Shown in pieces: positions 1,446-52,631 of a stretch of DNA of 64,000 bases. This DNA is from Clostridia bacterium (lineage in GTDB: Bacteria > Bacillota > Clostridia > Christensenellales > CAG-1252). The notes below the pieces were generated by a model, which searched no databases, had not been told where the DNA came from, and worked only from the letters and a program-made list of their open reading frames with translations. The stretch's first letter is position 1. Every line of letters begins with the position of its first letter. The stretch lies in assembly GCA_017394805.1 (NCBI GenBank), contig JAFPXC010000020.1, positions 69,578-133,577 on the forward strand, written 5' to 3'. The position numbers and the translations under genes are program-made.

Positions 1446-1727
1446 GTATACGTTATGTACTGTACATTTTGTATCGTGATAACGAGTAAAACAGTAGAAG
1501 ATATACGTAACGTATAGTATTGACAAAATATATACGTTTTGTATAGGAGTTCCTATGTATATACGTTTTGTGAAGAAAACCGCGTTTGTTGTATATACGT
1601 TTTGTATAGAAACGATGCTTATAGTATGGTTTTAGACTTTTGGAAAATGGAAAAGAGTATAAATTGTATAGTTTGCTATGAAATTATACAAAACGTATAG
1701 TCGTAGACTGCTGTACGTTTTGCATGT
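1446..1727. repeat. Cluster of about 9 copies of the palindromic motif (C)TRTAC-N5-GTAYA(G), locus 1
   Basis: Sites at 1447-1461, 1460-1476, 1501-1517, 1530-1546, 1560-1574 (degenerate), 1593-1609, 1684-1700 and 1711-1727, plus a right half-site at 1666-1671. The 18-mer TATATACGTTTTGTATAG is identical at 1529-1546 and 1592-1609, with a 15/18 copy at 1558-1575. The cluster lies between the divergent yhhQ and oxidoreductase promoters. Confidence 0.85.
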
Positions 1728-1778: not shown

Positions 1779-1806
1779 TTGACTTTTTTGCAAAATATAC
1801 TATAAT
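1779..1806 (+). promoter_or_regulatory. Putative sigma-A promoter of the oxidoreductase/carbonic anhydrase pair
   Basis: TTGACT - 16 nt - TATAAT. The ATG at 1825 lies 18 nt after the -10, so the leader is very short and has only a weak AGG. Confidence 0.5.
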
Positions 1807-1824
1807 AATATCAGGTATACCGTT

Positions 1825-3138
1825 ATGAGCAAGATTATCGTAGTTGGATTGGGGCACGGCGGGTTGATTGCCGCCGCGAAATTGGCCGAATCGGGCCACG
1901 AAGTCGTTATCTTCGAGAAGCGTTTGCCGCACGAGATTGGGCACGAATGGGAAGATAGATTCGACTTCGACCTCTTGGCGCGGATAATCGGCAAGGATAT
2001 CGCGGACTTCCCCGAGGGGAGTTGGCGGTATAGGGGAGATTGCACCTTCGTCAGCCCCGACAAGCGTACCGTGATAGACGTGCATTTTGCGAAAGACAAG
2101 CGGCAAAAAATCATGTGGCGCAAGCCGCTGATCGGGATGCTCGTCGACTACGCCCGCAGCAAAGGCGTGGAGATACGCTACCAAACGGAAGTCTCCGCGC
2201 CCGTTGTCAAGGACGGCAAGGTGGTCGGCGTCATCGTCGAGGGCGAAAAGGCGTATGCCGACCTCGTCGTTGACGCGTCGGGCGTATTCTCCGTCCTGCG
2301 CAAACAACTCCCCGACGATTGGGGAATAGAGAAAGAGCCGACGCGCGGCGACGTGTTCTACGCCAACCGCGCCTATTACGCTCGAGTCGACGGATACCCC
2401 ACCCCCGTCGTTCCTTTCGAGATCTACTTGATACACGAGGGCGAGCAGGGGCTGTCGTGGCTATGCACCAACGAGGACTCGGTGGACGTGTTGATCGGTC
2501 GCGTTTATCCCATAGACGAGGCCAAAGTAGAGGAACAACTGCGCATTTTCCGCGCGTCGCACCCGTGGCTCGGCGAGAAAGTACGGTGCGGCGGCAACTT
2601 TGCCGTCATTCCCGTGCGCAGGCCCTTGACGCGCATGGTGGGCGAGGGGTATGCCGCCGTGGGTGATTCGGCTTTTATGACCACGCCGATGAACGGTATG
2701 GGCATCGACTTGTCCCTACGAGCGGGGGAGATATTGGCCGAGAGCATAGGCGAAAAGGGCGTGACGATAGACGCCTTGTGGGCGTATAACCGCAAGTACC
2801 TCGCCACGGTGGGTGCCGCGGCCGCCAAGAACGAGGGGCTCAAAAACGCCTTGCTCAATCTACCGCCCGAGGGCGTGGATTTCTTGTACGAAAGCGGCGT
2901 CGTCGAGGCGGAAGACCTATCGGGCGGCGGCAAAAATATGACCTTTCGGCGGCTTATGCGCAAGTTGATACACGGTATGAAACGCCCCAAATACTTCTTC
3001 GCCATCGTCAAAGGGCTGATGAAAGGCGGCAAAATGACCAAATTGTATGCAAATCCGCCGCAAAACTTCGACTGCGAGGCCATCGCCGAATGGTCGCGTA
3101 AGATCGAGCAAAACGTCGTGAAAGTGGAGGAAAGATGA
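1825..3138 (+). CDS. FAD-dependent oxidoreductase (geranylgeranyl-reductase / phytoene-desaturase-like fold)
   Basis: 437 aa. The N-terminal sequence IIVVGLGHGGLIAAAKLAESGHEVVIFEKR is a GxGxxG-x17-E dinucleotide-binding motif. A GDSA-type FAD motif (AAVGDSAF) lies near residue 290. Confidence 0.75.
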   Translation: MSKIIVVGLGHGGLIAAAKLAESGHEVVIFEKRLPHEIGHEWEDRFDFDLLARIIGKDIADFPEGSWRYRGDCTFVSPDKRTVIDVHFAKDKRQKIMWRKPLIGMLVDYARSKGVEIRYQTEVSAPVVKDGKVVGVIVEGEKAYADLVVDASGVFSVLRKQLPDDWGIEKEPTRGDVFYANRAYYARVDGYPTPVVPFEIYLIHEGEQGLSWLCTNEDSVDVLIGRVYPIDEAKVEEQLRIFRASHPWLGEKVRCGGNFAVIPVRRPLTRMVGEGYAAVGDSAFMTTPMNGMGIDLSLRAGEILAESIGEKGVTIDALWAYNRKYLATVGAAAAKNEGLKNALLNLPPEGVDFLYESGVVEAEDLSGGGKNMTFRRLMRKLIHGMKRPKYFFAIVKGLMKGGKMTKLYANPPQNFDCEAIAEWSRKIEQNVVKVEER

Positions 3139-3668
3139 ATCAAATAGATATTTTGGAGCGGTTGTGGGAAGGCAACCGCGAATACGTCAAGAGCGGTAGG
3201 TACAAAGGGAACGTGGGCGAAAGTTTGCGCTCGTCGCTGGCCGCCAAACAAAGCCCGTTGGCCGTGGTCGTGACTTGCTCGGACTCTCGCGTGGTGCCCG
3301 AGGTGATTTTCGGCGCGGATTTGGGCGAGTTGTTCGTCGTTCGCGTGGCGGGCAACGTGCTGGGCGACGTTGAGTTGGCTAGTATCGAATACGCCACGGC
3401 GCATTTGGGCGTCAAAGTCGTCGTCGTGCTTGGGCATACCGCGTGCGGGGCAATCGCCGCCGCCATAGCGGGGGAGGAAGAAGGCCTCGTGGGGACGATA
3501 ACCGCGCCCATTCGCAAAATCATCGCAGGCGAGCAAAACGCCTACAAAGCCGCCGTTAAAAACGTCGTCTATCAGGTAGGCGTTGTCGAAGAGACCTTTG
3601 GCGAAGCGAACGTGGAAGCGGTCGGCGCCATATACGACGTGTCCAAGGGCACGATTGAGTTTTTGTAA
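3135..3668 (+). CDS. Beta-class carbonic anhydrase
   Basis: 177 aa with the zinc ligand motifs CSDSRV and HTACGA. ATGA start/stop overlap with the upstream oxidoreductase gene. Confidence 0.85.
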   Translation: MNQIDILERLWEGNREYVKSGRYKGNVGESLRSSLAAKQSPLAVVVTCSDSRVVPEVIFGADLGELFVVRVAGNVLGDVELASIEYATAHLGVKVVVVLGHTACGAIAAAIAGEEEGLVGTITAPIRKIIAGEQNAYKAAVKNVVYQVGVVEETFGEANVEAVGAIYDVSKGTIEFL

Positions 3669-3699
3669 ATTATAACCTTGTTAAAAGGAGGATTTATCT

Positions 3700-5286
3700 A
3701 TGAAAAAAATAGGCATAGTTACGCTAATTGCCATCACGCTGTGCCTCGTGCTGGCGTTCACGGCTTGTACGCCTACGCCTGCGTCCAAAGTGTTCGATGC
3801 AAAGAAGTTCGACACTTCGGTGAATACGAAAGTGTTGACGCAGGCCGTCAAAGTGACCGAATTGGACGGGTATTCGTTGAATAATCGCGCCAACGGATTG
3901 ATGTTGTTCAGCAAAATCAACGGCACCAAAAACGAGTATATTGTGTACGACGCCGTAGCCGAACGCGTCGTAAAGGCCTATTCGGAGGATACCAACGTTA
4001 AATACGCAATTACGCTGCAGTCGGTCAATTTCGTCGACGGTGTGTTCTATGTATTGCGCACGCGTACCGGTGCGACGGAAGCCGAATATTCGTATAAATA
4101 CGAGTTGATCGAGGCAAACGGCGAGACCGTCGCCGAGCAAACGACAGACTATGTGATTGACAACGTAATAAACGTTCGTGCGGACGTCATCCTGTTTGAT
4201 AATACGCTGTATCGCATCGGCGGCGATAATAAAATCGACAAAATCAAAGAGTTGAACGATTTGACCGGCGTTATTCCCAATTTCGACAGCAAGCGGAACG
4301 GCTGTTACTACGACTTCGATGGCGATAAATTTACCGTTTACGACGAGGATTTCGACGTGATCTACTATTATGAGGCACCCAACTACGCCACGAATCCCAA
4401 CTTCAACGTGTTGGATAACGGCAATGTGCTGACTACCTATTCGATACCGAAAATGGATACGGACAACAAGTACGTTTATATCCAAGTGCAAAACAACGCC
4501 GCCAAGAAATACGACCTGCGTCAGTTGGTCATCAACCCCAAAAAGGGCAAAATATCTCAGTTGGAGAATAAATATTATATCGCGTTTGCCTCGTCGCGCT
4601 ACGAGGACGACGGCGAAGACGTTTTCAATGGGCTCAACAAAAAATACGTCAACGTGGCCTGCATCTATCCCATCGAAGACGGGTATCTCAAAAACAACAA
4701 TTCGGACTCTATAATCGTGAGCATAGGCAACGACGGCTTGCCGGGGGATATCCTCAACGCGACCATCGAGGGCGAGCAAGGCTTTGAGTGCATCTCCAAG
4801 GATAGAGTCATCATCAACGACTGGTTCGGCAATAGTTATTTGTGCAACTACAAGGGAAAGGTCATCGGCAAAGTGACGAACAAAATCGGCTATAACGAAA
4901 CCTTCGTCATCGGTGCCGAAAACGTGTACGATATGGACCTCAAAGTGGTGTGCGCCTATGCGAAAGCGGGGTACGACTACGAGTTCTGCTTGGGCAACAG
5001 CGTTGTGCTGAGTAAGGAAGTAGACGGCAAGGTGCAGTATAAACGCTTGACTGCCGATAGCGTTTTGCACGATCTTTGCGACGATAGCGCGAACTTTACC
5101 AGACAAAGCGCGTATTATTCGGTGCGTAAGAACATCGGCAAATACGAACTGTATAACTGCGACAGCGATTTGATCTGGACGGCGGAAAGCCCGATTTCCG
5201 TGTATGCGGATACGTGGGGCGCAAGACAATACGGTCTTGTCAAGGTAAACGAGAGTGGCAGCAACGTATATTATATCTTGCATTAA
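3700..5286 (+). CDS. Lipoprotein of unknown function
   Basis: 528 aa. AAAGGAGG SD 8 nt upstream. Signal peptide MKKIGIVTLIAITLCLVLAFTAC with the lipobox LAFTAC. N/K/Y/D-rich mature part with no catalytic motif that I recognise. Confidence 0.75.
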   Translation: MKKIGIVTLIAITLCLVLAFTACTPTPASKVFDAKKFDTSVNTKVLTQAVKVTELDGYSLNNRANGLMLFSKINGTKNEYIVYDAVAERVVKAYSEDTNVKYAITLQSVNFVDGVFYVLRTRTGATEAEYSYKYELIEANGETVAEQTTDYVIDNVINVRADVILFDNTLYRIGGDNKIDKIKELNDLTGVIPNFDSKRNGCYYDFDGDKFTVYDEDFDVIYYYEAPNYATNPNFNVLDNGNVLTTYSIPKMDTDNKYVYIQVQNNAAKKYDLRQLVINPKKGKISQLENKYYIAFASSRYEDDGEDVFNGLNKKYVNVACIYPIEDGYLKNNNSDSIIVSIGNDGLPGDILNATIEGEQGFECISKDRVIINDWFGNSYLCNYKGKVIGKVTNKIGYNETFVIGAENVYDMDLKVVCAYAKAGYDYEFCLGNSVVLSKEVDGKVQYKRLTADSVLHDLCDDSANFTRQSAYYSVRKNIGKYELYNCDSDLIWTAESPISVYADTWGARQYGLVKVNESGSNVYYILH

Positions 5287-5320
5287 GCCGTAGCAACCGA
5301 TACCCCCTAGCGGTATGCAC

Positions 5321-5361
5321 AAAAAAAACGCTTCTTCTCTTGGCGGAAGAAGCGTTTTTTA
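5321..5361. terminator. Bidirectional intrinsic terminator between convergent genes
   Basis: A8 run, stem ACGCTTCTTC (5328-5337) / GAAGAAGCGT (5346-5355), then a T6 run. Confidence 0.8.
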
Positions 5362-5373
5362 TGCGCTGCAAAA

Positions 5374-7077
5374 TCAGTTGAGTTTGGCTGAGAAGTCCGC
5401 GATGCCCGCGTTGACGGCCTGCATCACCTTGGCCACCGTGCCCTCGCGGAAGGGGTTGTCGAGGTGCGCCAAATCGAGAAGGGCAAAGTAGCCGCGACTG
5501 CCGCCCGCGCGGCACAGGGCGAGATAGTCCGTCCACGCCGTTTGGTGGTCGGCGCGGTCTTTGGCGAAGAATTGGAACGCGCACACTTGCGCCAAGGCGT
5601 AGTCCACGTAGTAGAATGGGTAGAGGAAGATATGCTGTTTTTGCATCCAGAAGCCGCCCTCTGCGAGGAACTCGTTGCCGTCGTAGTCACGCCAAGGCAG
5701 GTATTTTTGCTCTATCTCGTGCCATACGGCGCGGCGCTCTTTGGCGGTCATTGCGGGCTTCTCGAATACGCGGTGCTGGAACTCGTCCACCGACACCAGG
5801 TAGGGAATGCAGGTGAGGGCGCCGACGAGGTGCGCGTAGCGGTATTTGTCCGCCGCTTCTTTTCCGAAGAACTTGTCCGCATAGGGGTAGGCGAAGTGCT
5901 CCATCGACATGGAGTGTATCTCGTCCACTTCGCTGGTTGACCACACCATTTCGCTGAGGGGTTGCGTTTTGGCGGCCGTATAGGCCTCGAACGCGTGCCC
6001 CGCTTCGTGCGTCAAAACGTCCACGTCGGCCGAGGTGCCGTTGAAGTTGGAGAAGATGAAGGGCGCGCCCAACGAGCCGAGGAAGGTGCAGTAGCCGCCC
6101 ATATGTTTGTTGGGGCGAGTCTCCAGATCGAACAATTCGTAGTCGCACATAAACTTGAAAAACTCCGCCGTTTCGGGGGAGAGCGCTTGATAGAACTCGA
6201 GCGCTTTGCCTACCAAAACGTCCTTGCCGCCGATGGGATTTGCGTTGCCGTCGGGGAAGAGGAGTTCTTCGTCGTAGTAGCGCAATTTGTCTACGCCCAG
6301 CCGTTTGGCTTGTTCGGCGTGCAGACGGGCGCACACGGGCACGATCTCGTCGCGCACTTGGTCGCGGAAGGCGGCCACGTCTTTGGCGGTGTAGTCGTAG
6401 CGCTCGCGTTGCAGATAGATATAGTCGATATAACTGTCAAAGCCCAACGCTTGCGCTTTTTTGACGCGCAGCGCCACCAACTTGTCGTAGATGGCGTCCA
6501 ACTTGTCCGAAATGCTCTCGTACAAGGCCGCCCATTTCTCAAAGGCCTCTTTGCGCTCGGCGCGGTCGGTCGAATTCATGTGTTTGAGTAGACCGTAGAA
6601 GTTGCACGTTTCGCCGCGGAAATCGCACGACGCCATGGCCGCCGTCTTGGAATACTCTCGCCCGAGTTTTTCCTCGCGGATCATCATGGGGACGATTTTG
6701 GCGTTCATCAGTTTGAGTGAGGTCTCGAGGTTTTTGACCACCAAGTCGCTGTAACGCTCGGCAAGCGCGCCGACGTAGGGGGAGGCCACGACGGCTTTGT
6801 TGAACTTCTTCATTTTGAGTTGCAGTTTGGCGGCGAAGCCGTCCAAAAACTCCATCTCGCCCTCGTAGAACTTGTCGCTCATATCCATCGTGTTGCGGAT
6901 AGAGGCCACGGTGAACATGGTTTCGATTTCTTTACCTTGGCGATCCACGTCGGCGTAGATGCGGCACAATTCGTTGCCCGATTTGACTTTTTTGACTTGC
7001 TTGATGGCTTCGTCGAGTTGGGCGTAGAGAGCCGCTTCGTCGGGGCGCACGTATTTGATTTCGCTGAATTTTTGCAT
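5374..7077 (-). CDS. pepF: Oligoendopeptidase F (M3B metallopeptidase)
   Basis: 567 aa from the ATG at 7077 (TAAGGAGATAACT upstream). HEAGHAF zinc motif. The ORF-track entry 5374..7527 carries a spurious 150-aa N-terminal extension across the upstream terminator. Confidence 0.85.
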   Translation of the reverse strand: MQKFSEIKYVRPDEAALYAQLDEAIKQVKKVKSGNELCRIYADVDRQGKEIETMFTVASIRNTMDMSDKFYEGEMEFLDGFAAKLQLKMKKFNKAVVASPYVGALAERYSDLVVKNLETSLKLMNAKIVPMMIREEKLGREYSKTAAMASCDFRGETCNFYGLLKHMNSTDRAERKEAFEKWAALYESISDKLDAIYDKLVALRVKKAQALGFDSYIDYIYLQRERYDYTAKDVAAFRDQVRDEIVPVCARLHAEQAKRLGVDKLRYYDEELLFPDGNANPIGGKDVLVGKALEFYQALSPETAEFFKFMCDYELFDLETRPNKHMGGYCTFLGSLGAPFIFSNFNGTSADVDVLTHEAGHAFEAYTAAKTQPLSEMVWSTSEVDEIHSMSMEHFAYPYADKFFGKEAADKYRYAHLVGALTCIPYLVSVDEFQHRVFEKPAMTAKERRAVWHEIEQKYLPWRDYDGNEFLAEGGFWMQKQHIFLYPFYYVDYALAQVCAFQFFAKDRADHQTAWTDYLALCRAGGSRGYFALLDLAHLDNPFREGTVAKVMQAVNAGIADFSAKLN

Positions 7078-7248
7078 AGTTATCTCCTTATAGTTGTATA
7101 TGAAAACCATATCATATTTTGACGAATTAGTCAACAATGGCGGCGCATCTTTTTGCTCGTATAGCGCGAACTGCCGCTTACGCTTCGGCTTGACCTGACG
7201 ATCACGGACGAATGCGCGGTTTACAGACGAATTGAAAGAGTAAAGCAC

Positions 7249-7290
7249 AAAAAAACGCGTCTCCCGTGTGGCGAGAGACGCGTTGTTTTT
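7249..7290 (-). terminator. Intrinsic terminator after the small membrane protein gene
   Basis: Stem ACGCGTCTC (7255-7263) / GAGACGCGT (7275-7283). On the minus strand it is followed by a T7 run. Confidence 0.75.
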
Positions 7291-7295
7291 GATCG

Positions 7296-7577
7296 TCAAC
7301 TGAACAAATTGGCAAACCACCGCGTGAGGGCTTCTATGCCGCCCGTGGCGACTTTGACGATAATAAGGACGCCGAAGACGATGAGGGTAAGTATCAACCC
7401 GCAGAAGAAAGAGCGCGAGAAGTTGCGTACGTTGACGTTGTTGGACCTGCTCAACGAGTTGATCAGCAGTACGATGAAGCCGACGATGGGCACGGCGTAC
7501 AATATGCTCAACCCGAAATAATGCCAAGGGCTGATGGGTGATTTGTCACCGGGTGCGTTGGAATAGTCTTTGCTCAT
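7296..7577 (-). CDS. Small membrane protein (2 predicted TM helices), unknown function
   Basis: 93 aa. AAGGAGATATCT precedes the ATG. Two hydrophobic stretches. A terminator follows directly. Confidence 0.6.
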   Translation of the reverse strand: MSKDYSNAPGDKSPISPWHYFGLSILYAVPIVGFIVLLINSLSRSNNVNVRNFSRSFFCGLILTLIVFGVLIIVKVATGGIEALTRWFANLFS

Positions 7578-7672
7578 AGATATCTCCTTTTTGATGCGGC
7601 TATGCCGCGTATGGATTTATTATTGCACGATAGTGCGGCGAAGTCAAGCGCGCGGAGCATCTCACGGAAATG

Positions 7673-7963
7673 CTATTTTTGCAAGGACTTGAGATAATTC
7701 TTGCATTCGTACATTCGGTTGTCGGCGCGGTTGTCGTAATCTTCGCCTTCCGGCAAGACGACGAATTCGTCGCCGCCGTTGCGATAGACGGGACTATGCT
7801 TGAATTGATTGCAGATGAGCGTGCACGCGTTGCGGAGCAGTTTTTCGACTTCGAGAAGACCTCGTTGTTGACGATAAACAGCAAGGCAATGGCAAGTATC
7901 GGCACGATCGAATACATTTATTTCTCCCAATATCTCTTTGTTGTAAGTAAAATATTGTAGCAC
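7673..7963 (-). pseudogene. Remnant or miniaturised GGDEF (diguanylate cyclase) domain
   Basis: The 96-aa frame contains RNGGDEFVVL and a RADNRMYECK tail (compare RADxAlYxAK). It lacks the N-terminal half of the domain and about 40 aa between the two motifs. There is only a GTG start and no SD. Confidence 0.45.
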
Positions 7964-8084
7964 AGATAGACTGTGTATTCAATTAAAACTGAATAATAAT
8001 CCGCATTTAGTCGACGAATACCGACAAATAAGTTCCGACACGAGGCATATTGTAATGTTTTTCAAAATAATTTGCAAAAAGTAA

Positions 8085-8113
8085 TTGCTTTTTGGGACGA
8101 TGTGGTTTATAAT
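8085..8113 (+). promoter_or_regulatory. Putative sigma-A promoter of the tRNA-Ala gene
   Basis: TTGCTT - 17 nt - TATAAT, 18 nt upstream of the mature tRNA 5' end. Confidence 0.55.
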
Positions 8114-8130
8114 CTATAATGCAAACGCGT

Positions 8131-8206
8131 GGGGGCATGGCTCAGTTGGTAGAGCGATACGTTCGCAACGTATAGGCCAGGGGTTCGAATCCCCTTGTCT
8201 CCACCA
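8131..8206 (+). tRNA. tRNA-Ala (anticodon CGC), CCA encoded
   Basis: Hand-folded cloverleaf. Acceptor GGGGGCA/TGTCTCC with the Ala identity pair G3:U70. D arm GCTC-AGTTGGTA-GAGC. Anticodon stem ATACG/CGTAT with loop TTCGCAA. T arm AGGGG-TTCGAAT-CCCCT. 3' CCA. Confidence 0.93.
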
Positions 8207-8212
8207 CTTCAA

Positions 8213-8239
8213 AGCGACCGAGATTCGGTCGCTTTTTTC
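8213..8239 (+). terminator. Intrinsic terminator of tRNA-Ala
   Basis: AGCGACCG / CGGTCGCT stem with a 5-nt loop, followed by T6. Confidence 0.75.
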
Positions 8240-8336
8240 GTGGTGGAGAGAAGGGGCTCCTCACCCCGACCTACGGCCAGGCTGCACCCCTCGCTACGCT
8301 CGTGTGGAAGGCTCCTCATGAGCGGTCGCTTTTTTC
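8240..8336 (-). other. Inverted tRNA-Ala 3'-end-like fragment bracketed by a 14-bp direct repeat
   Basis: The minus strand reads ...GGTCGGGGTGAGGAGCCCCTTCTCTCCACCA, against the tRNA 3' part GGCCAGGGGTTCGAATCCCCTTGTCTCCACCA. The T-stem and acceptor 3' strand are conserved, but the T-loop is replaced and there is no matching 5' acceptor strand. CGGTCGCTTTTTTC occurs at 8226-8239 and again at 8323-8336. Confidence 0.5.
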
Positions 8337-8392
8337 AATCGTTTGACAGCGGCTGGTTTGGATGGTAAAATCAAAAATAAGGCGGTGAGTAT

Positions 8393-10078
8393 ATGGTAAG
8401 GCATCTATTATATTCGCAGGATAACATTACACTGATATTTAGTCTTGCATTTATTATTTGGTTTGTCATTCTTTTGATCGTGCGTAAACCGGTCGGAGAT
8501 AACGCCGTAAAAGCAAAGGTATGGATAGGTCTGTGCTTCGTTCCGCTTGCGGCGGCAATAATTCATTTCTTCTTGTATTCGTTCGGCGACGCGGTGCTGC
8601 CCTTGTTGGCGAAATATGCGTTTATTTATGCGTCGGCCATTCTTACGGCGTTTTTCCCGCTGGTTTTTATGAAAAAGAGCAATAAACCCGTAAAAATAGT
8701 CGGTGCTACGGTTATCGGCGCAGTATGTCTCGTTTCGCTTTTTTTCTATATCGATTCGCCGGCGTCGGTCAATTACTCGAACGGAGATTTGAAGAGCGCA
8801 TACGTTTCGTTGTGCGATTATTTTGAAGAAAACTACATATTGAACGAATGGAAAAAGCCCGATTACGAAAAAATCAAAGCGGACGGCTTGCTGTTGATCG
8901 ACGAAGCCGAAAAGACGGGCGATATAACGAAATACTACGAAGCGATCGACACATTCACGTACGGCTTTTATGACGGACATATGGGTATGTCCTTCTATGA
9001 CGAAAACGATTATTTGATGACGAAGTTAAAGCAATTCAACGACTACGGACTGTCTCTCGTTACGCTGGACGACGGAACCACGATAGCCGTTGACGTGGAA
9101 GACGGGCTTGCCATAAAAAACGGCGACACGGTTACGAAATGGAACGGCGTTCCCATAGACCAAGCCGTTGAAAGCGTGCAGGTGCCGACGCCCGAGGCGG
9201 TAGCCGAAAACGAGAGGATAGAGAAGGCGTTCTGGCTGGCCGGTACGGGCGGCGAGCGCGTTGAGGTGTGCTATATCAACTCGGATAGCGAAGAAAAAAC
9301 GATTACGCTCGATAGGCTTGATTCCGCGTTGCCGAGAGCCTTGCGGGCGAGACGGCTGTTTTGGCACAATACGGATGGGGCATATTCGTATAAAATGCTC
9401 AACGACGATACGGGATATATGAAAATCAAGACGGAAGAAACCGACCGTTTTCACGATTATTTCGCCTACGTCAGCGGCAACCATATATACGCGAGAGAGA
9501 CGTTCAGACGCGACCTGCGAACGCTGAAAAAGCAGGGAATGATGAAGTTGATCGTTGACCTGAGAAACAACGGCGGCGGTTATGACGAGGTCGCAACCGC
9601 TTTTGCAAGTCTGTTTGCAAAAGAAAAAACGTACGCCTTTTCGCTCGGCATCAGAAAGAACGGCGAGTACGTCAAAACCGCCGACAGATATATTATGGCC
9701 GACGGCGAATTCGGCGACGTTGAGATACTCGTGCTTACCAATATGCGCTGTGCGTCCGCGGGTGACGGAATGGTGCTGTATATGTCAAAGCTCGACAACG
9801 TGACGATTGCGGGCTTGTCCTGCCCCTCGGGCTGCAATCAGGAATCGGGCGGCTCGATATATATGCCGAAAGGAGTGGTCGTTAATTTTCCCGTTGGCCT
9901 TGTGCTGGACGAAGAAGGAAATCCGAATATCGACGTTGATGATTCAAGGCAAAGCCGAACGCCGCTCGACGTAAAGATCCCTTTGACGAAAGAGGCGGCT
10001 CTTGCGATCTTTAACGAGGAAAACTTTGACAACGGGGAGGATTACGAACTCGAATGGGCGATCAATTATCTCAATTAA
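8393..10078 (+). CDS. Membrane-anchored S41-family (C-terminal processing / tail-specific) peptidase
   Basis: 561 aa. The N-terminal ~120 aa contain about 4 hydrophobic helices. The C-terminal part carries DLRNNGGGY and TNMRCASAGD motifs typical of S41 peptidases. SD AAGGCGGTGA. Confidence 0.78.
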   Translation: MVRHLLYSQDNITLIFSLAFIIWFVILLIVRKPVGDNAVKAKVWIGLCFVPLAAAIIHFFLYSFGDAVLPLLAKYAFIYASAILTAFFPLVFMKKSNKPVKIVGATVIGAVCLVSLFFYIDSPASVNYSNGDLKSAYVSLCDYFEENYILNEWKKPDYEKIKADGLLLIDEAEKTGDITKYYEAIDTFTYGFYDGHMGMSFYDENDYLMTKLKQFNDYGLSLVTLDDGTTIAVDVEDGLAIKNGDTVTKWNGVPIDQAVESVQVPTPEAVAENERIEKAFWLAGTGGERVEVCYINSDSEEKTITLDRLDSALPRALRARRLFWHNTDGAYSYKMLNDDTGYMKIKTEETDRFHDYFAYVSGNHIYARETFRRDLRTLKKQGMMKLIVDLRNNGGGYDEVATAFASLFAKEKTYAFSLGIRKNGEYVKTADRYIMADGEFGDVEILVLTNMRCASAGDGMVLYMSKLDNVTIAGLSCPSGCNQESGGSIYMPKGVVVNFPVGLVLDEEGNPNIDVDDSRQSRTPLDVKIPLTKEAALAIFNEENFDNGEDYELEWAINYLN

Positions 10079-21868: not shown

Positions 21869-24853
21869 TTAGATGACATAGAACTTTCTCGTTCGATAGA
21901 GTAGGGCGTACACGATTACCCATACTGGCAGCAACAGTAGCATGGCCGCGGGGTAGAACACGGGGGCGATAAGGGTGTTGATCTCGCTGATATTGGCGCC
22001 CGATTTCGGATTGAAGAAGGCGATCAGTAAGAAGATCATCATCAATATCAACGCCACCATGAACGAGGTTGCGAACGATAGTTTGAAGGAGAAGGTCGCC
22101 GGCGCGTGTCGGTCTTTGTACGCCAGATAGCGTACGCCGCAGTAGCAGGGGATAAGGAACAGCACGATGCCCGTGCATAGGTAGGGCATAAAGCCGAGCC
22201 CCGCGTATTTGTCACACACGAAGTAGCCGATGAGAATGAGCGCGACCGCCACCAGATAGACTAAGCACGAGGTGGCAAAGCGAATGCTGTTGACGTTGAT
22301 ATATTTCTGCGAATAGTACTGCACGGTATGCTGGACGACGTATTGGCGCACATCGTAGCCTTTTTTGCGCATCTCTTCGCGGAATTCGGACAGACTGCCG
22401 CATTCCTTCATCGTGATTTTGCTGTCCACGTCTTCTTGCTGTTTGGGCGCGTTGGACGAATTGAACAAGTTGTGCAAAATCGTCTTGTACGACAGGTGTT
22501 TTTCCGTTTCTTCCTGTTGCAGGTAGATTTCCAATTCGGTTTGGGGCGTGAAGATGGCGGAGTAGGACTCTCTCTTTGGCGAGATTTCTTCCTCTTTGAC
22601 CTCGGGCACTTCCTCTTCTGGCTCTTGCGGCTCCTCGGTTTTATCGTCCTCGATCAAGCCCAAAAGGCGCATAGAAGCAAGCCTTTTCTCGTGCATTTCG
22701 GGGTTTTCTTCCAATTCTTGCCGAATGTCGGCACGACTGAACGCCGTCCTGCGTTTGATTGGTTCAGGCTCGGCTTGGGCGGCCTCTTGCGATTGCTCGT
22801 ACAAGGCAAAGGTGTCGGCTTCTTCCTCTTCGGCAATGACGCGTTCCTCGTTTTTGCGGCCTTTACGCCCTTTCTGCCGCGCCTTTTTGTCTTCTTTGAC
22901 GGGCGCAACGGGCTCGTTCGATTCTTCCTCGGGCAAGGAACTATTCGCCTCTACGACGGCTTCGTCATAGGTGGATTCGGGCTGTGCTTCCGCTTGTTCC
23001 GAGGGGAGAGTAGCCTCGACGTCGGACGGAGTTTCGTCGGTTTGCGCTTCTTCTTGCGTTTCGCTATCGGCGTCGTCGGCACGAGATTCTTGTTCGGCGG
23101 GTTCTTCCGTTCGTTCGCTTGCGACCACAGGCTCTTTATAGGTTCGTTCTGCTTCGGGCACTACGGGATATTCCTCGTCGGTCGTCTCTTGTGCGGGTTC
23201 TTCCGTTGTGTCTTGGGATGGCTCGCCGAAGAGGACGTATTCGTCCATCACGGTCGAAGTCGGTTCGTAGGCGGATTCGGTCTCGACCGCGGTGGGCGTT
23301 TCGTCGTCCTCGACAACTGCTTCGAGCTCGTCGGTTTCGTTATATTCTTCGGTTATGTCTTCTTCTGCCGCTTCGTCTCGTTCGTCGACGGGTTGCTCGG
23401 CGCTTTCGGTTTCGATCGATTCGTCTTCAACGTCGGCGTTTTCGTCAACTATTTCCGCGCATATCTCGTCTTCGTCCGTATCGTCGGTATTTTCGACGAC
23501 AAAGGGCGGTTCATCGCCGTCTTCTTCGTGTTCTTCGCTATTCTCTGCGGCGATAACTTGTTCGTCTTCCGATTCTTCTTCGACTGCTTCCGTTTGGTCG
23601 CTTTCGACAGCATACGCGGCCTCGTCCGCCGTATCGTCGAATTGCTCGTCGAGCACTTCCTCGGCAACTTCGGCAGGTTCTTCCTCGTCGTTATCGTCCG
23701 ATTCTCGTTCGTCTTCGCAGACGGTTTCAGCTTGTTTGAACGGCTCGTAAGAGTAGGGCGGCTCGTATTCGCTTGCCGCTTCATCGTCTGCGCTTTCGTC
23801 TTCGTCCGTCACCTGCGCCTCTTCCGCCGTATCGTCTTCGGCGGCGTAAAGCGCTTCGTGCGCAGGCTCGTATTCTTCGTCCGATATTGCTTCCTCGTCC
23901 GTTTCTTCTTGCACGACCTCTTCTTGCTCGTCGTCGGAGGGTAGGGCGGGTTGTTCTTCGTCTTGGGCGGCTTCTTTTATTTCAGTCTCGTCTTCGTTTA
24001 TATCGTCGGCAGCTTCTTCGAAGGGCTCTTCCTTGATTTCTTCCTCGTCCGACTCGGCGAAAACTTCCTCGACTTGTTCGGCTTCTGCGGGGAGTTCGTC
24101 GGAAATTTCTTCGCATTCGACGTTGGAATCTTCCTCAGACTCGGACGAATCGTCTTCGTCAACGTCCTCGGCAGCGTCTTTCGCCGCTATTGAATCTTCT
24201 TCCGTTTCGGCGGGCTCTTCGACTTCTACGGGGCATTCTTCTTCGATTTGCGCGGAATCATCCTCGTTTTCTTGGTCATCAGCTGCGTTTTCGGTCGAAT
24301 ATTGCGCATCGGTATCCGTTTCCTGTTCGGTTAGAGATTCGTCAATGGCGATATCCGTTTCACTTTCGACTTCACTTTCGTCGGTATCGGCGGCGTCCGC
24401 TTCCGCTGCAAGTTCGGTGAACTCCTCGGCATCTTCGATTTCGAAAATCTCGAGGTTGTCTTCAAAAATGTGCAGGGTAGGCTTGCCGTCACCGAAATCA
24501 TCGGTGAGATATATCTTCTCGTTCGAAGCGCTCACCGGAGAGAGCGCCAGCGCGTCGCACAATTTGTCGATCATTTGGTCGTCCAGATTGAACATAGGCA
24601 GGTCATCGACCGAAATGCGCAGGGCAAAAAACGAGCGGTTGGGATCGGATTCTTGACAAATGCAGGCAATCAGGCAATCCAACTGCAATTCGTTGACTCT
24701 ATTGGCGACGCTCAAAGGGGAAATATGATAACGGTCCAAAAAACCGTCCAAAGACGACGTAATCTCGTAAACTGTCAACGAGGAATGCGCCAATGCGTTG
24801 AGTATGTAGGAATCCATTTGTTCCAGCAATTCATCGTATATATTATTTCCCAT
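21869..24853 (-). CDS. Hyper-acidic membrane-anchored protein: winged-helix-like N-terminal domain, ~540-aa D/E-rich disordered tract, 4-TM C-terminus
   Basis: 994-aa ORF. The N-terminal ~130 aa are globular (ILNALAHSSLTVYEITSSL... resembles a wHTH). Residues ~140-680 are roughly 40-50 percent D+E by eye, with almost no K/R. A short basic patch follows (KKARQKGRKGRKNEER). The C-terminal ~150 aa contain four long hydrophobic helices. No family recognised. Confidence 0.75.
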   Translation of the reverse strand: MGNNIYDELLEQMDSYILNALAHSSLTVYEITSSLDGFLDRYHISPLSVANRVNELQLDCLIACICQESDPNRSFFALRISVDDLPMFNLDDQMIDKLCDALALSPVSASNEKIYLTDDFGDGKPTLHIFEDNLEIFEIEDAEEFTELAAEADAADTDESEVESETDIAIDESLTEQETDTDAQYSTENAADDQENEDDSAQIEEECPVEVEEPAETEEDSIAAKDAAEDVDEDDSSESEEDSNVECEEISDELPAEAEQVEEVFAESDEEEIKEEPFEEAADDINEDETEIKEAAQDEEQPALPSDDEQEEVVQEETDEEAISDEEYEPAHEALYAAEDDTAEEAQVTDEDESADDEAASEYEPPYSYEPFKQAETVCEDERESDDNDEEEPAEVAEEVLDEQFDDTADEAAYAVESDQTEAVEEESEDEQVIAAENSEEHEEDGDEPPFVVENTDDTDEDEICAEIVDENADVEDESIETESAEQPVDERDEAAEEDITEEYNETDELEAVVEDDETPTAVETESAYEPTSTVMDEYVLFGEPSQDTTEEPAQETTDEEYPVVPEAERTYKEPVVASERTEEPAEQESRADDADSETQEEAQTDETPSDVEATLPSEQAEAQPESTYDEAVVEANSSLPEEESNEPVAPVKEDKKARQKGRKGRKNEERVIAEEEEADTFALYEQSQEAAQAEPEPIKRRTAFSRADIRQELEENPEMHEKRLASMRLLGLIEDDKTEEPQEPEEEVPEVKEEEISPKRESYSAIFTPQTELEIYLQQEETEKHLSYKTILHNLFNSSNAPKQQEDVDSKITMKECGSLSEFREEMRKKGYDVRQYVVQHTVQYYSQKYINVNSIRFATSCLVYLVAVALILIGYFVCDKYAGLGFMPYLCTGIVLFLIPCYCGVRYLAYKDRHAPATFSFKLSFATSFMVALILMMIFLLIAFFNPKSGANISEINTLIAPVFYPAAMLLLLPVWVIVYALLYRTRKFYVI

Positions 24854-24890
24854 ATAATAGTATTTTAGTACAAACGACCATAAAAGTCAA
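24854..24890 (-). promoter_or_regulatory. Putative promoter of the acidic-protein gene (leaderless or near-leaderless)
   Basis: Minus strand TTGACT - 17 nt - TAAAAT - 8 nt - ATG (24853). No SD. Confidence 0.45.
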
Positions 24891-24946
24891 TAAGAACGCA
24901 AATATTATAGGTGAGCGACCGCTAAAATGAAACGGCGGCGAAGCAC

Positions 24947-25354
24947 AATACATTATGTACGGTATGAAACGTATAGTATAATCGGCATACAAAACGTATA
25001 GTTTTATAACCATACAAAATGTATAGCAATACATACAAAATGTACAATAGCGGCAGTAATGGCGTATATGTACATTTTGTATAGTATACTGTACATTATG
25101 TATAGTTGCAAATAAAACATCAGCCATGGAAGACGGGGAGTTGGTGCGCGTGTACGTTTTGTATAGTGCGCTATACGTTATGTATAGATACACAAGTTGC
25201 TCGGTAATGACTATATGTTTTGTATATCTACGACAAATATTCATGTACAAGGATACTGTCGATCGGCTTGCCGTGTTCGCTCCGGATTGTCTGTATGTCT
25301 TCGATGAATGCCTTGTTTTTGTTTGGCGGCTATTTATTCTGTACAAAACGTACG
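24947..25354. repeat. Palindrome array, block A: at least 11 copies of CTRTAC-N5-GTAYAG
   Basis: Left half-site starts at 24947, 24986, 25011, 25032, 25069, 25090, 25151, 25172, 25212 and 25340, plus a right-half-only site at 24971. Examples: CATACAAAACGTATAG (24986-25001) and CTATACGTTATGTATAG (25171-25187). The spacer is always A/T-rich. Confidence 0.9.
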
Positions 25355-25370
25355 ATTTTGGCCAAATTTT

Positions 25371-25416
25371 GCCTATATCTTTTCGCAAAAGGCGTCTTTT
25401 GCGAAAAGATATAGGC
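25371..25416. repeat. Perfect 21-bp inverted repeat (hairpin/cruciform) in the array core
   Basis: GCCTATATCTTTTCGCAAAAG (25371-25391), loop GCGT, then CTTTTGCGAAAAGATATAGGC (25396-25416). There is no flanking U-tract on either strand. Confidence 0.9.
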
Positions 25417-25618
25417 AAAGCGCAAATTTCCCTCGTCAGAGCCCGTATATACAAAAGATAATTGCCGCCCGACACCACCGAACGGAATGGGTTGGCGTGC
25501 GTGCGCTTTCGTTCGGCCAAACTGACGGATCGCCCCTGCCCTATCGACGCAAATTTGCAAAAATCGTCAAAATTCTCCTCGGGGGAAAATACTTGCATTC
25601 GCCAAAAAACGCGCGATA

Positions 25619-26229
25619 TGTACATAATGTATAGTCAAATAAACGCCTGGTGATGGCCTATATATAATGTATACAAAATGTACAGTCAACTGTATAAAAC
25701 GTATAGATAAGAATTATTGGGACCAACATTGCATTCTGTAGATTTTATACAGCAAACTATACTAAACGTATAGATGGCAATTAAGAATGAATAGCGCGAC
25801 CTCACTCCCCCGCCCTGACCGTCCTTCAATAATCGAACTATACAAAATATATATATAACTATACATATTGTATACTATACATTTCATACAGCGTACTATA
25901 CATTATGTATATGTATATTTCGTATAGTAAATATGTCCTTACGGCTGCTTCCCGTTTTGAGCCGTCAATATTGTCCATTGTGTATGTACAAATTGTATAG
26001 ATACAAAACGTATAGGCCTATACAAAGCGTACAGTCATTCGTTTCATCGGCACGCTGTACAAAACGTATATGGTGTGTTTGAGACTATGCTATACGTTAT
26101 GTATATATACAAATTGTATAGTTTGAAACGTCGCTATACATATCGTATACATACATTTTGTATACTTGGCGTTCGTCTTGCTGAGATACGATTCTTCCGC
26201 CCGCATATTGTTACTGTATAAAACGTATA
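25619..26229. repeat. Palindrome array, block B: at least 20 copies of CTRTAC-N5-GTAYAG
   Basis: Left half-site starts at 25619, 25659, 25670, 25691, 25737, 25758, 25839, 25860, 25876, 25897, 25912, 25985, 26000, 26019, 26056, 26091, 26106, 26135, 26150 and 26215. Example: CTATACTAAACGTATAG (25757-25773). Confidence 0.9.
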
Positions 26230-26291
26230 TTATCGGTATTTTTTGTATATTCAATCATTTTAGAAAAATATGTTTTTTTATCGAAAAAGTC

Positions 26292-26320
26292 TTGCAAAAA
26301 TAACCTGTTTATGGTAGAAT
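26292..26320 (+). promoter_or_regulatory. Putative sigma-A promoter of the XRE gene
   Basis: TTGCAA - 17 nt - TAGAAT. A leader with SD GAGGTG precedes the ATG at 26347. Confidence 0.55.
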
Positions 26321-26346
26321 GAAACTACCATTTATGAGGTGCAGTA

Positions 26347-26559
26347 ATGAACAATTTTAAGTACAATCTCATAATCACCCGCAAGCGTTGCAAGTATACC
26401 CAAAAGGAGATGGCGGATATGCTTGGCGTGACCGAGGGTTGCTACGCGCACTGGGAACAAGGGCGGAATGAGCCGAGCATCGCTTATATCATTCAGCTTT
26501 GCAAACTGTTACACGTTACGTCGGACGAGCTGCTGGGTGTCAACAATGACGAGAACTAA
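26347..26559 (+). CDS. XRE-family helix-turn-helix transcriptional regulator
   Basis: 70 aa. YTQKEMADMLGVTEGCYAHWEQGRNEPS is a classic Cro/C1-type HTH. Confidence 0.82.
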   Translation: MNNFKYNLIITRKRCKYTQKEMADMLGVTEGCYAHWEQGRNEPSIAYIIQLCKLLHVTSDELLGVNNDEN

Positions 26560-26581
26560 GTCGCAAACAGCGACTTTTTTC
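26558..26581 (+). terminator. Probable intrinsic terminator after the XRE gene
   Basis: AAGTCGC / GCGACTT stem with a 5-nt loop, then T6. It overlaps the stop codon. Confidence 0.55.
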
Positions 26582-26609
26582 TTTGCTTAAAATCTTTTCG
26601 CAAAAATTA

Positions 26610-26644
26610 TTGCATTTCCGCTCAATCCGTCTTATCATAATAGT
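26610..26644 (+). promoter_or_regulatory. Putative promoter giving leaderless recombinase mRNA
   Basis: TTGCAT - 17 nt - TATCAT (26633-26638) - 6 nt - ATG (26645). No SD. Confidence 0.5.
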
Positions 26645-27700
26645 ATGGACAATTACTTTCAAAACCGCGATATCGAAAACACGAAGAAGCTGAGCGCGCT
26701 ACGCAAGCAACTGCCGCCCTACTGCGGCAAGTATTTCGTCGCCATTTCTTCGGTCACGACGGCTTTGACGAGATTGGGCTACGCACGCGATTTGCTCATA
26801 TTCTTCAACTACCTCTGCTCTACCGGTCAATTCGGCATGTGCACACCCCCCGAGTTCGATATCGACCGTCTCAACGCCGTAACGCAATCGGACATCGAGG
26901 CCTATCTCGATTATCTGTCCAATTACGAGGTGGACGGCAAAATATACGTCAATAAATTGAGCGCCATGTCGCGCAAACTGTCCGCCGTGCGCTCTCTCTT
27001 CAAATATCTGTATAACAAGGACTTGTTGCACGAAAACGTTTCCGCCAAGGTGCTGACGCCCAAACTGCACGAAAAGGAAATCATTAGGCTGGAGTCGGAC
27101 GAAATGCAGCGCTTTATGGACGTGGTGGAACGCGGCGACAATCTGGGCGAGGGGCATCAATCGGCCTACCACAAAAACGTCGCCCTGCGCGATATGGCCA
27201 TCACTACCCTACTGCTCGGCACGGGCATTCGTATCAGCGAATGCGTCGGCCTCAACGTGGACGACCTGGACTTCGACAACCGCAAATTCGTCGTGACGAG
27301 GAAAGGCGGCAGTCGCTCCATATTGTATATGCCCCAAGAGGTGATCGACGCGTTGCAGGCCTACCTCAGCGTACGTTTGGCCATTCCCACAGATACCGAC
27401 GCCTTGTTTTTGTCCCTGCAAAACAGGCGTATCAACGTGCGTACCGTGCAGATTATGGTGCGAAAATACGCCGCGGCCGCCGTGCCGACGAAGCATATCA
27501 CGCCGCACAAATTGCGCTCTACGTTCGGTACCAATCTATATAGAGAAACCAAAGATATTTATGTCGTGGCCACCGTACTCGGCCATAGCGACGTGAATAC
27601 GACCAAAAAACACTACGCCGCCATCAGCGAAGATATCAAAAAGCAGGCGGCAGAGGTCGTGCGCTTGCGCCCCTCGGACGGCGACGATACGCACGAATAA
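26645..27700 (+). CDS. Tyrosine site-specific recombinase, XerC/XerD-like
   Basis: 351 aa. N-terminal SAM-like core-binding domain. The catalytic residues sit in their usual context (GTGIRISE; HKLRSTFGT; LGHSDVNTTKKHYA). Confidence 0.9.
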   Translation: MDNYFQNRDIENTKKLSALRKQLPPYCGKYFVAISSVTTALTRLGYARDLLIFFNYLCSTGQFGMCTPPEFDIDRLNAVTQSDIEAYLDYLSNYEVDGKIYVNKLSAMSRKLSAVRSLFKYLYNKDLLHENVSAKVLTPKLHEKEIIRLESDEMQRFMDVVERGDNLGEGHQSAYHKNVALRDMAITTLLLGTGIRISECVGLNVDDLDFDNRKFVVTRKGGSRSILYMPQEVIDALQAYLSVRLAIPTDTDALFLSLQNRRINVRTVQIMVRKYAAAAVPTKHITPHKLRSTFGTNLYRETKDIYVVATVLGHSDVNTTKKHYAAISEDIKKQAAEVVRLRPSDGDDTHE

Positions 27701-27706
27701 CGCAGT

Positions 27707-27901
27707 CTATTTTTTCGATTTATTGTTGGGAACAACGACGCTGTCGATCAAAACGCCGTTGTAGTCCGCCATATCCAAGCATTTCATGCAGTTATCACAG
27801 CGCTTCGTGGGATCCAGATCGCACATATCGCAAGCGCCGCAATCGTCGCAAATAACGCCTTTGACCAAAATACATTCCTTGCCGACGTTGGGATTAGTCA
27901 T
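27707..27901 (-). CDS. Small cysteine-rich protein, 2 x [C-x7-C-x2-C-x2-C]
   Basis: 64 aa. GGAGG lies 7 nt upstream of the ATG. 8-nt overlap with the upstream ynbB-like gene. Eight Cys at positions 10, 18, 21, 24, 27, 35, 38 and 41 form an internal duplication. Confidence 0.6.
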   Translation of the reverse strand: MTNPNVGKECILVKGVICDDCGACDMCDLDPTKRCDNCMKCLDMADYNGVLIDSVVVPNNKSKK

Positions 27902-52584: not shown

Positions 52585-52631
52585 CTATACAAATTGTATA
52601 TTTTTGACCAATTTCTATACGCTTCGTATAG
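52585..52631. repeat. Two copies of the CTATAC-N5-GTATA(G) palindrome, locus 3
   Basis: CTATACAAATTGTATAT (52585-52601) and CTATACGCTTCGTATAG (52615-52631). They lie about 50-100 bp upstream of the hrcA promoter. Confidence 0.8.

Follow-up and report, generated by a model that had tools for sequence, protein, structure and literature searches.

Which protein reads a short palindrome that is repeated 31 times in a single intergenic region, and what could such a region do for a bacterial chromosome? The question is raised by 64,000 nucleotides from a Clostridia bacterium (contig JAFPXC010000020.1, positions 69,578 to 133,577; numbered here from the first letter), which we call the window and which is all of this genome that is visible here. 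In its interval 24854-26346, a 17-bp palindrome fills two blocks, A and B, on either side of a motif-poor core, between the gene of a 994-aa acidic membrane protein and the genes of a 70-aa XRE protein (xre) and a tyrosine recombinase (xer); coordinates are collected in Table 1. Comparing this locus with related ones, we arrived at a reading that we hold with moderate confidence: the core would contain the dif site of a XerS-like recombinase at the replication terminus of a Christensenellaceae-type Clostridium, the 17-mers would be operators of the XRE protein, whose repressor family is apparently shared with integrative mobile elements exploiting Xer (IMEX), and the two arrays would surround a bare dif core.

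In the interval, TRTAC-N5-GTAYA has 15 exact matches, and the count rises to 28 when up to one mismatch is allowed. Dinucleotide-preserving shuffles (n=200) gave means of 0.04 and 0.94 and maxima of 1 and 4, respectively, which answers the comparison with shuffled sequence that a preliminary description of this DNA had set as a check. For site calling, we used a symmetric position-weight matrix with a threshold of at least 14 bits. The scan returned 31 sites, 11 in 24947-25354 and 20 in 25619-26229, and reproduced the earlier count for both blocks exactly. Neighbouring sites are regularly arranged: six of the seven pairs reported at a distance of 21 bp are present as described (25011/25032, 25069/25090, 25151/25172, 25670/25691, 25839/25860 and 25876/25897), and the seventh (25737/25758) is present as well but has a degenerate first member (25737, 14.7 bits). 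The five closer pairs, 15-16 bp apart, were also recovered (25860/25876, 25897/25912, 25985/26000, 26091/26106 and 26135/26150). Over four species, distances of 20-21 bp account for 26 of 205 site spacings, a strong over-representation that agrees with the proposed two helical turns between neighbours. The motif consensus is identical in all seven species that carry arrays. The spacer had been described as five A/T-rich nucleotides, which holds for the other species, where it is merely AT-rich; in the window it is directional (AAAAY) and not random, with A at each of the first four positions in 21-27 of 28 oriented sites.

What does the core between the blocks hold? Its approximately 260 bp are indeed poor in the array motif, as had been stated, but this is not a promoter core, and a conserved dif-like site with a 13-6-13 layout had been overlooked. 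Here, the arms TCTTTTCGCAAAA (25378-25390) and TTTTGCGAAAAGA (25397-25409) enclose the centre GGCGTC (25391-25396). Arms of the form ACTATTCGCAAAA or TCTTTTCGCAAAA, each with its inverse and a variable 6-bp centre, lie upstream of an orthologous recombinase gene in 11 of the 11 loci in which the region is assembled, and the arms are perfectly symmetric. The recombinase of the window has the catalytic residues R, K, HxxR, H and Y, with GTGIRISE, KGG, HKLRSTF and LGH..HY readable, and its best NCBIfam model is XerS (NF003462, 196.4 bits, full-length over residues 13-338), ahead of XerA, XerC and XerD. The locus is probably a chromosomal dimer-resolution (dif) site that is served by this single XerS-like recombinase, and the recombinase most likely binds the core palindrome and not the 17-mers. 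A canonical Firmicutes dif was not found in the 64-kb window. Homologues of the recombinase in metagenome-assembled genomes (MAGs) of Clostridia form at least 120 clusters, those listed all being at least 53% identical, and identity within the array-bearing clade amounts to 57-78%. A scan of a genome collection with the recombinase returned one relevant genome, a Christensenellaceae MAG labelled uncultured Christensenellaceae bacterium.

The centre of the dif-like site differs in most species examined. In L005 and L006 (8841-8864 in both), which have the same recombinase protein, it reads GACAGC and CGCGAG, respectively. Such variation may have arisen as an evasion of elements that require a matching centre to integrate.

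GC skew in the window changes from +0.078 left of dif to -0.012 right of it (p=1e-7). In each of the 10 loci compared, skew is higher on the left than on the right, the pattern that a terminus would give whichever way it is oriented. The octamers G[AG]GNAGGG are of the type of FtsK-orienting polar sequences (KOPS) or SpoIIIE recognition sequences (SRS), and their identity as the KOPS of this host is assumed. They are found ten times on the plus and never on the minus strand to the left, and never on the plus and seven times on the minus strand to the right, so that all of them point to dif; the switch of polarity falls between 23939 and 25534. These counts were taken from the window only, as pooling over related loci is confounded by shared orthologous genes. 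Other G-rich control octamers follow a like trend, with exceptions.

The order array, dif, array, xre, xer is shared by seven species (the window, L002, L034, L003/L004, L028, L035 and L036-38), which also answers the question, raised in the preliminary description, of whether the array is conserved together with its flanking genes. Two further contigs of the clade, L001 and L149, contain the xre-proximal array only. The numbers of sites left and right of dif are 9 and 19, 12 and 20, 10 and 15, 18 and 19, 18 and 28, 27 and 11, and 23 and 19; the left arrays of the six other species hold 10-27 sites, and the totals in the relatives amount to 25-46. In the four species for which shuffles were run, these counts are 16- to 30-fold above the shuffled sequence. 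With respect to the dnaX-recR and mutS-mutL-miaA flanks, the block is inverted in L003, L028, L035 and L036, yet intact, and the window, L002 and L034 represent the subclade with the other orientation. Individual sites appear to be under purifying selection, because in the comparison of block B with L001 and L149 (species at about 78% recombinase identity) the site positions are kept while the DNA between the sites has diverged. Tandem duplications of 15-25-bp units, with about two copies each, occur within the arrays. Near-perfect 20-bp tandem repeats in some relatives suggest that the arrays grow by local tandem duplication; in L028 such repeats are found at 3838-3938, 4615-4675 and 5103-5263, comprise up to nine units and have half-sites that are alternately 9 and 11 bp apart.

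More distant relatives (L005/6, L007/8 and L009) have the same dif site and recombinase and neither xre nor an array. Two of these loci, L007 and L008, encode the same recombinase protein, and L008 carries two tandem insertions exactly at dif (L007 9486-9521). The insertions (1787-3377 and 3397-9487) are each bounded by ACTATTCGCAAAACACAAC, and an intact palindrome is regenerated beside xer. The larger one encodes a rolling-circle Rep protein (phrog_3419, 2e-23), repressors, small open reading frames (ORFs) and a 717-aa protein without a family, and no match to a recombinase was obtained within it. Since a Rep protein is present, a recombinase is missing and the insertion lies exactly at dif, we consider the insertions to be putative IMEX-like elements that exploit the host Xer system. 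The larger element also contains an uncalled XRE gene without a canonical start codon, whose product is 45% identical to the XRE protein of the window and has the same ..YAHWEQGR.. helix. This gene adjoins ACTGTACATTATGTACAGA and GAGTACATTATGTACATA, a motif pair located in a divergent control region.

With these relatives at hand, the binder of the 17-mers can be narrowed down. The resemblance of the sites to operators of a dimeric helix-turn-helix (HTH) protein, which had been noticed before, is supported, and three candidates had been named: the XRE protein, the recombinase and the N-terminus of the acidic protein. Only the first of them stood up to the comparison. Arrays are present at every xre locus, that is in seven species, and absent from four species without xre. 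Across the clade, XRE proteins share 73-96% identity and an almost invariant HTH, and the nearest solved structures are ICEBs1 ImmR and P22 C2. The 17-mers are most likely operators of the adjacent XRE protein, because the motif strictly co-occurs with xre, the XRE protein is the most conserved of the candidates and its homologue in L008 adjoins the same motif; CTATACAAAACGTATAG is the array sequence that we predict as its target. The recombinase has the same length in relatives without arrays, which argues against an extra arm-binding domain, and the N-terminus of the acidic protein is an unlikely reader, as its identity is 22-41% within the clade while the motif is constant.

From these comparisons, the XRE protein with its operator and the immunity module of IMEX-like rolling-circle elements would be members of one repressor-operator family. 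A related arrangement is seen in the inovirus PQ006182 (L161), in which a repressor with 38% identity to the XRE protein has three copies of ACCGTAATTTTTACGGT (1705-1785) directly upstream; their layout is a 5-5-5 palindrome like that of the 17-mer, with a different half-site. Relatives of the XRE protein were not found in IMG/VR, and a homologue search that depends on shared words returned seven clusters only, all from the same clade. Viral and Joint Genome Institute (JGI) metagenome sequences were scanned for two sites 21 bp apart, and among the matches listed and inspected the only contig of the same clade was L149; the other array-rich matches inspected were unrelated 21-bp satellites, tandem repeats and other phage iterons.

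How might these parts act together? XRE dimers would read the TRTAC half-sites across an uncontacted AT-rich spacer of 5 bp, and dimers 20-21 bp apart would sit on the same face of the DNA, probably in a cooperative manner. Repressor would thereby cover about 0.4-1 kb on each side of dif and spare a bare core of 260-700 bp with dif in it, and the coated flanks would keep fork fusion, and possibly other machines that move along DNA, within this core. Our leading reading, put forward tentatively and by analogy, is therefore that the arrays may be a non-polar protein roadblock or insulator which confines events at dif, because the two-sided bracketing is conserved, while distance, orientation and flanking genes are not, and because the XRE protein consists of an HTH only. 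Synthetic lacO and tetO arrays of about 20 or more sites stall replisomes. More speculative still, and in our estimate rather doubtful, is the proposal that the XRE protein and the arrays form a third, independently evolved termination device, which was recruited from an IMEX immunity module and pins fork fusion on dif.

Several points weigh against the interpretation as an XRE-bound dif locus and against the roadblock built on it. Every functional step is deduced from sequence, the recombinase score of 196.4 bits stays below the curated XerS cut-off of 267, and a canonical XerCD/dif system may exist elsewhere in the genome, of which 64 kb are visible. No 17-mer lies on the predicted xre promoter, and a 70-aa protein with nothing beyond the HTH has no obvious cooperativity or partner domain. 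When orientation is judged by the spacer, the sites are not mirror-symmetric around dif (67 plus and 32 minus on the left, 58 plus and 54 minus on the right), a poor fit to a polar trap in the style of Tus or RTP, although the sites may carry polarity by other means; a two-sided block without polarity would need to be leaky. Depending on the species, the nearest 17-mer is 12 to 254 bp away from dif on the left and 70 to 405 bp on the right, and this range of 12-405 bp speaks against any precise architecture. Finally, the motif is found at two other intergenic regions of the window, so that a role specific to dif is not the sole reading.

Other explanations have to be weighed against the same observations. 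The link to IMEX raises the idea that the arrays serve defence: a domesticated immunity repressor would be concentrated at the landing site, where it represses the replication operon of incoming elements with a shared operator or silences inserted ones, and the arrays would be its reservoir. Elements with a 45%-identical repressor and the same operator do insert at dif in a relative that lacks xre, the dif centre varies even where the recombinase is identical (L005 and L006), which hints at conflict with integrating elements, and insertions at dif were seen in 0 of 7 array-bearing and 1 of 4 array-less species, although these numbers are tiny. Immunity, however, needs the repressor gene and not 30-45 chromosomal operators that titrate the repressor, and immunity repressors usually diversify, whereas the XRE protein is more conserved than the housekeeping recombinase. 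Furthermore, neither half-dif scars nor IMEX coding remnants were found within the arrays, where only the operator matches the L008 element, and we regard a defence function as unlikely. Alternatively, XRE-bound flanks could shape the Xer synapse in the manner of cer and psi, impose resolution selectivity or activate the single recombinase. Seven species keep the arrays in cis with dif, the fully symmetric dif arms imply that directionality must come from outside the site, and the XRE protein weakly resembles the VC1465 family of Xer activation factors, albeit by its HTH only and far below the cut-off (E=9e-5). This accessory role is nevertheless improbable in our view: known accessory sequences are one-sided and at a fixed distance, the arrays are two-sided and 12-405 bp away, relatives that share dif and the recombinase do without arrays, and the XRE protein has no domain beyond its HTH.

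An explanation that does without dif altogether would make the XRE protein an ordinary transcription factor with a small regulon and the array a sink for titration or autoregulatory buffering, with the proximity to dif being incidental. The motif upstream of the gene of a FAD-dependent oxidoreductase (about nine sites) and of hrcA (two sites), the one site conserved in the syntenic intergenic region of L160 and the promoter and terminator of xre itself fit this idea, to which we give little credence, as two-sided bracketing in seven species and joint inversion with dif are left unexplained and xre and its sink replicate together, so that copy-number sensing would be weak. Even less credit can be given to a tether, in which the 994-aa acidic protein binds the 17-mers through a PadR-like winged helix and holds the terminus at the membrane or septum. 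Wherever the neighbourhood was assembled, also in array-less loci, its gene is found in synteny with xer and dif, its N-terminus aligns with PadR domains, and PadR operators are palindromes of about 16-17 bp. On the other hand, this N-terminus is only 22-41% identical while the motif is unchanged, PadR was not detected in it by Pfam, and relatives with an intact PadR domain lack the motif. Hardly any probability remains for a plasmid-type centromere or iteron origin, for arm-type sites of the recombinase or for functionless remnants of a mobile element. The two blocks around a core resemble parC, the region is AT-rich and the 15-25-bp duplications show local expansion, but the centromere or iteron-origin analogy of the preliminary description failed: no partition ATPase (ParA or ParM) or Rep gene is present, DnaA boxes are absent from the array region and parS from the window, the palindromes are in mixed orientation and are not direct iterons, and the setting is that of chromosomal housekeeping genes. 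Arm-type sites are at odds with a recombinase that is not longer than in array-less relatives, and remnants with the missing half-dif scars and coding remnants, with purifying selection on the sites and with arrays kept in seven species.

The interpretation as an XRE-bound dif locus can also be set against systems that are already known. XerS/difSL of streptococci and lactococci consists of a single tyrosine recombinase of about 350 aa beside its own dif-like site at the GC-skew shift, and difSL is an imperfect 31-bp site whose two inverted arms are separated by a centre of 6-8 bp (Le Bourgeois et al., 2007, PMC1914069). The present locus shares with it the linkage of the recombinase gene to a two-arm site at a skew shift, and XerS is the best curated model. 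It differs in that the score is below the XerS cut-off and the arms are different and perfectly symmetric; in the array-bearing clade, dif is separated from xer by an array and xre, with a second array beyond, and the ancestral partner genes are here lexA and the gene of the PadR-membrane protein. Similar to Tus-Ter of E. coli and RTP-Ter of B. subtilis, the locus has multiple sites for a small DNA-binding protein to the left and right of terminus and dif. The tus and rtp genes adjoin one of their own Ter sites, as xre lies near its presumed sites, and the A and B sites of RTP offer a likeness for close or overlapping site pairs. Unlike those of Tus and RTP, the sites are palindromic, have no mirror polarity and take up about 1 kb on either side, compared with tens to hundreds of kb in those systems, and searches of the flanking proteins against Pfam and NCBIfam gave no match to Tus or RTP.

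With repressors of the 434 and P22 type, the presumed binder shares an HTH_3 domain, palindromic operators of 14-18 bp that are AT-rich in the middle and pairs of operators two turns apart; the lack of contacts to this middle part is a presumption taken over from 434 and P22. In L008, a homologous repressor and the same operator sit in an element that makes use of the Xer machinery of its host, which recalls the RstR immunity module of CTX-phi. In contrast to phage repressors, which have 2-6 operators, there are 31 operators in the window and 25-46 in the relatives, without the layout of a genetic switch, and the XRE protein is encoded on the chromosome and surpasses the housekeeping genes next to it in conservation. 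While Cro and CI would lead one to expect few operators that overlap regulated promoters, none of the 31 sites is on the xre promoter. The sites cer and psi likewise have protein-bound DNA flanking an Xer core in cis. Theirs lies on one side only, covers about 180 bp, keeps a fixed distance and binds ArgR/PepA or ArcA, whereas the arrays are two-sided, 0.4-1 kb long, at a variable distance and presumably bound by the XRE protein. The parC/ParR system of R1 has two repeat blocks around a core and the gene of the binder adjacent to them as well, but its repeats are direct 11-bp iterons, its binder is a ribbon-helix-helix protein that acts with ParM and its core is a promoter, in contrast to palindromes, no NTPase and a recombination site in the core.

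Taken singly, the parts appear familiar: XRE operators on the one hand, a single-recombinase Xer module on the other. In the searchable literature, we found no description of this dif site, of a XerS-like system in Clostridia or of operator arrays flanking dif, and to our knowledge 25-46 operators bracketing dif have no counterpart in Tus/Ter, RTP/Ter, MatP/matS or the XerD unloading sites. The arrays reach the size of the synthetic lacO and tetO arrays that stall replisomes. The locus points to the dif/Xer system of many Clostridia from gut and rumen, a large group with few cultured members, and identifies the attachment site of integrase-less rolling-circle elements in these bacteria. It also raises the question of how termination, dimer resolution and defence against dif-integrating elements may be coupled in bacteria without Tus or RTP. 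If the termination proposal is true, the device would sit on the dif site of a XerS-like dimer-resolution system, previously undescribed and widespread in Clostridia. With one 70-aa protein, one 17-bp site and one palindrome, the system is directly testable.

Table 1. Features of the array locus and of other motif-bearing regions, in positions of the window.
Feature	Position	Strand	Description
Second, smaller array	1446..1727		6 sites of at least 14 bits (1446-1684), about 9 at 10 bits or more; about 280 bp; intergenic
994-aa protein	21869..24853	-	Diverged PadR-like N-terminus, polyacidic linker of about 650 aa, C-terminal multi-pass membrane domain
Array block A	24947..25354		11 copies, consensus CTATAC-W5-GTATAG; on the side of dif opposite xre and xer; matrix scan and shuffles
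Motif-poor core	25355..25618		Only the dif-like palindrome is conserved between species (alignment of 11 loci)
dif-like site	25368..25419		Perfect 52-bp palindrome
Array block B	25619..26229		20 copies; between dif and xre; matrix scan
Variant operator-like element CGGTATTTTTTGTATAT	26235..26251		11.4 bits; invariant in three species; about 40 bp upstream of the xre -35 element
xre promoter-like site	26292..26320	+	TTGCAA-17-TAGAAT, TG upstream of the -10 element; conserved in L001 and L149
xre	26347..26559	+	70-aa HTH_3 protein, Cro/C2 type; Pfam PF01381, E=4e-12; proposed 17-mer binder
Terminator-like hairpin and T-run	26558..26576	+	Directly 3' of xre; conserved in L001, L149 and L034
Lone recombinase arm TCTTTTCGCAAAA	26593..26605	+	40 bp upstream of the xer start; decayed second arm after 6 bp; between xre terminator and xer
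xer	26645..27700	+	351-aa tyrosine recombinase, XerS-like; Pfam Phage_integrase, 1.7e-35
Motif pair	52585..52631		Two exact copies (52585/52615), 30 bp apart, about 100-130 bp upstream of hrcA

The locus lies in a conserved chromosomal setting, with dnaX-ybaB-recR on one flank and a Met-gamma-lyase-like gene, miaA, mutL and mutS on the other, followed further out by hrcA-grpE-dnaK-dnaJ. The AT-richness noticed earlier was confirmed, GC being 0.37-0.385 in the array region and about 0.54 in the whole window. The region had also been called free of credible ORFs. Strictly, a 260-aa ORF is present (24843-25625, minus strand), but its translation is low-complexity junk rich in Y, C, I and R without a Pfam match. 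Rfam covariance models produced only sub-threshold, microRNA-like matches to the palindromes in 24000-27000, none at the gathering score.

In the inverted form of the block, the gene of the acidic membrane protein is found downstream of xer on the same strand, after an ORF of 67-71 aa. The linker of the 994-aa protein is composed almost entirely of Asp, Glu and small residues, and the C-terminus of the protein shares 32% identity with its PadR-membrane counterpart in L009. A single-sequence AlphaFold model of the N-terminus was unusable (predicted local distance difference test, pLDDT, 55.8). This protein is a possible partner of the dif system or a possible rival binder. In L005, L007 and L009, lexA follows directly downstream of xer, a position (27700-27894 in the window) that it occupies in no array-bearing locus. 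The gain of xre and arrays coincides with the loss of lexA from the operon and with the decay of the PadR signature in the membrane protein.

The motif is not unique to the interval between the acidic protein and xre, as two other intergenic regions hold eight more sites of at least 14 bits, although none was found in the remaining approximately 62 kb. The smaller array lies upstream of a TTGACT-17-TATAAT promoter of the FAD-dependent oxidoreductase gene, which is divergent from the gene of a Vut_1 transporter, and the exact site of L160 in the matching intergenic region is at 4879. The pair near hrcA is located beyond the consensus promoter TTGACA-17-TATAAT and the CIRCE-like element of this gene. 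As it has a few sites at other promoters, the XRE protein is probably a transcription factor as well, and the two exact copies upstream of hrcA suggest that it also touches the heat-shock operon.

Matches to the recombinase arm number three in the window, compared with 0.22 expected. The lone arm upstream of xer is conserved in the xre-xer spacers of L001, L149 and L034 and may serve autoregulation or be what is left of an ancestral dif that overlapped the promoter of xer and, in the latter case, may have been split upon the gain of array and xre. In L009, a complete dif overlaps the TTGACA-17-TAAACT promoter of xer.

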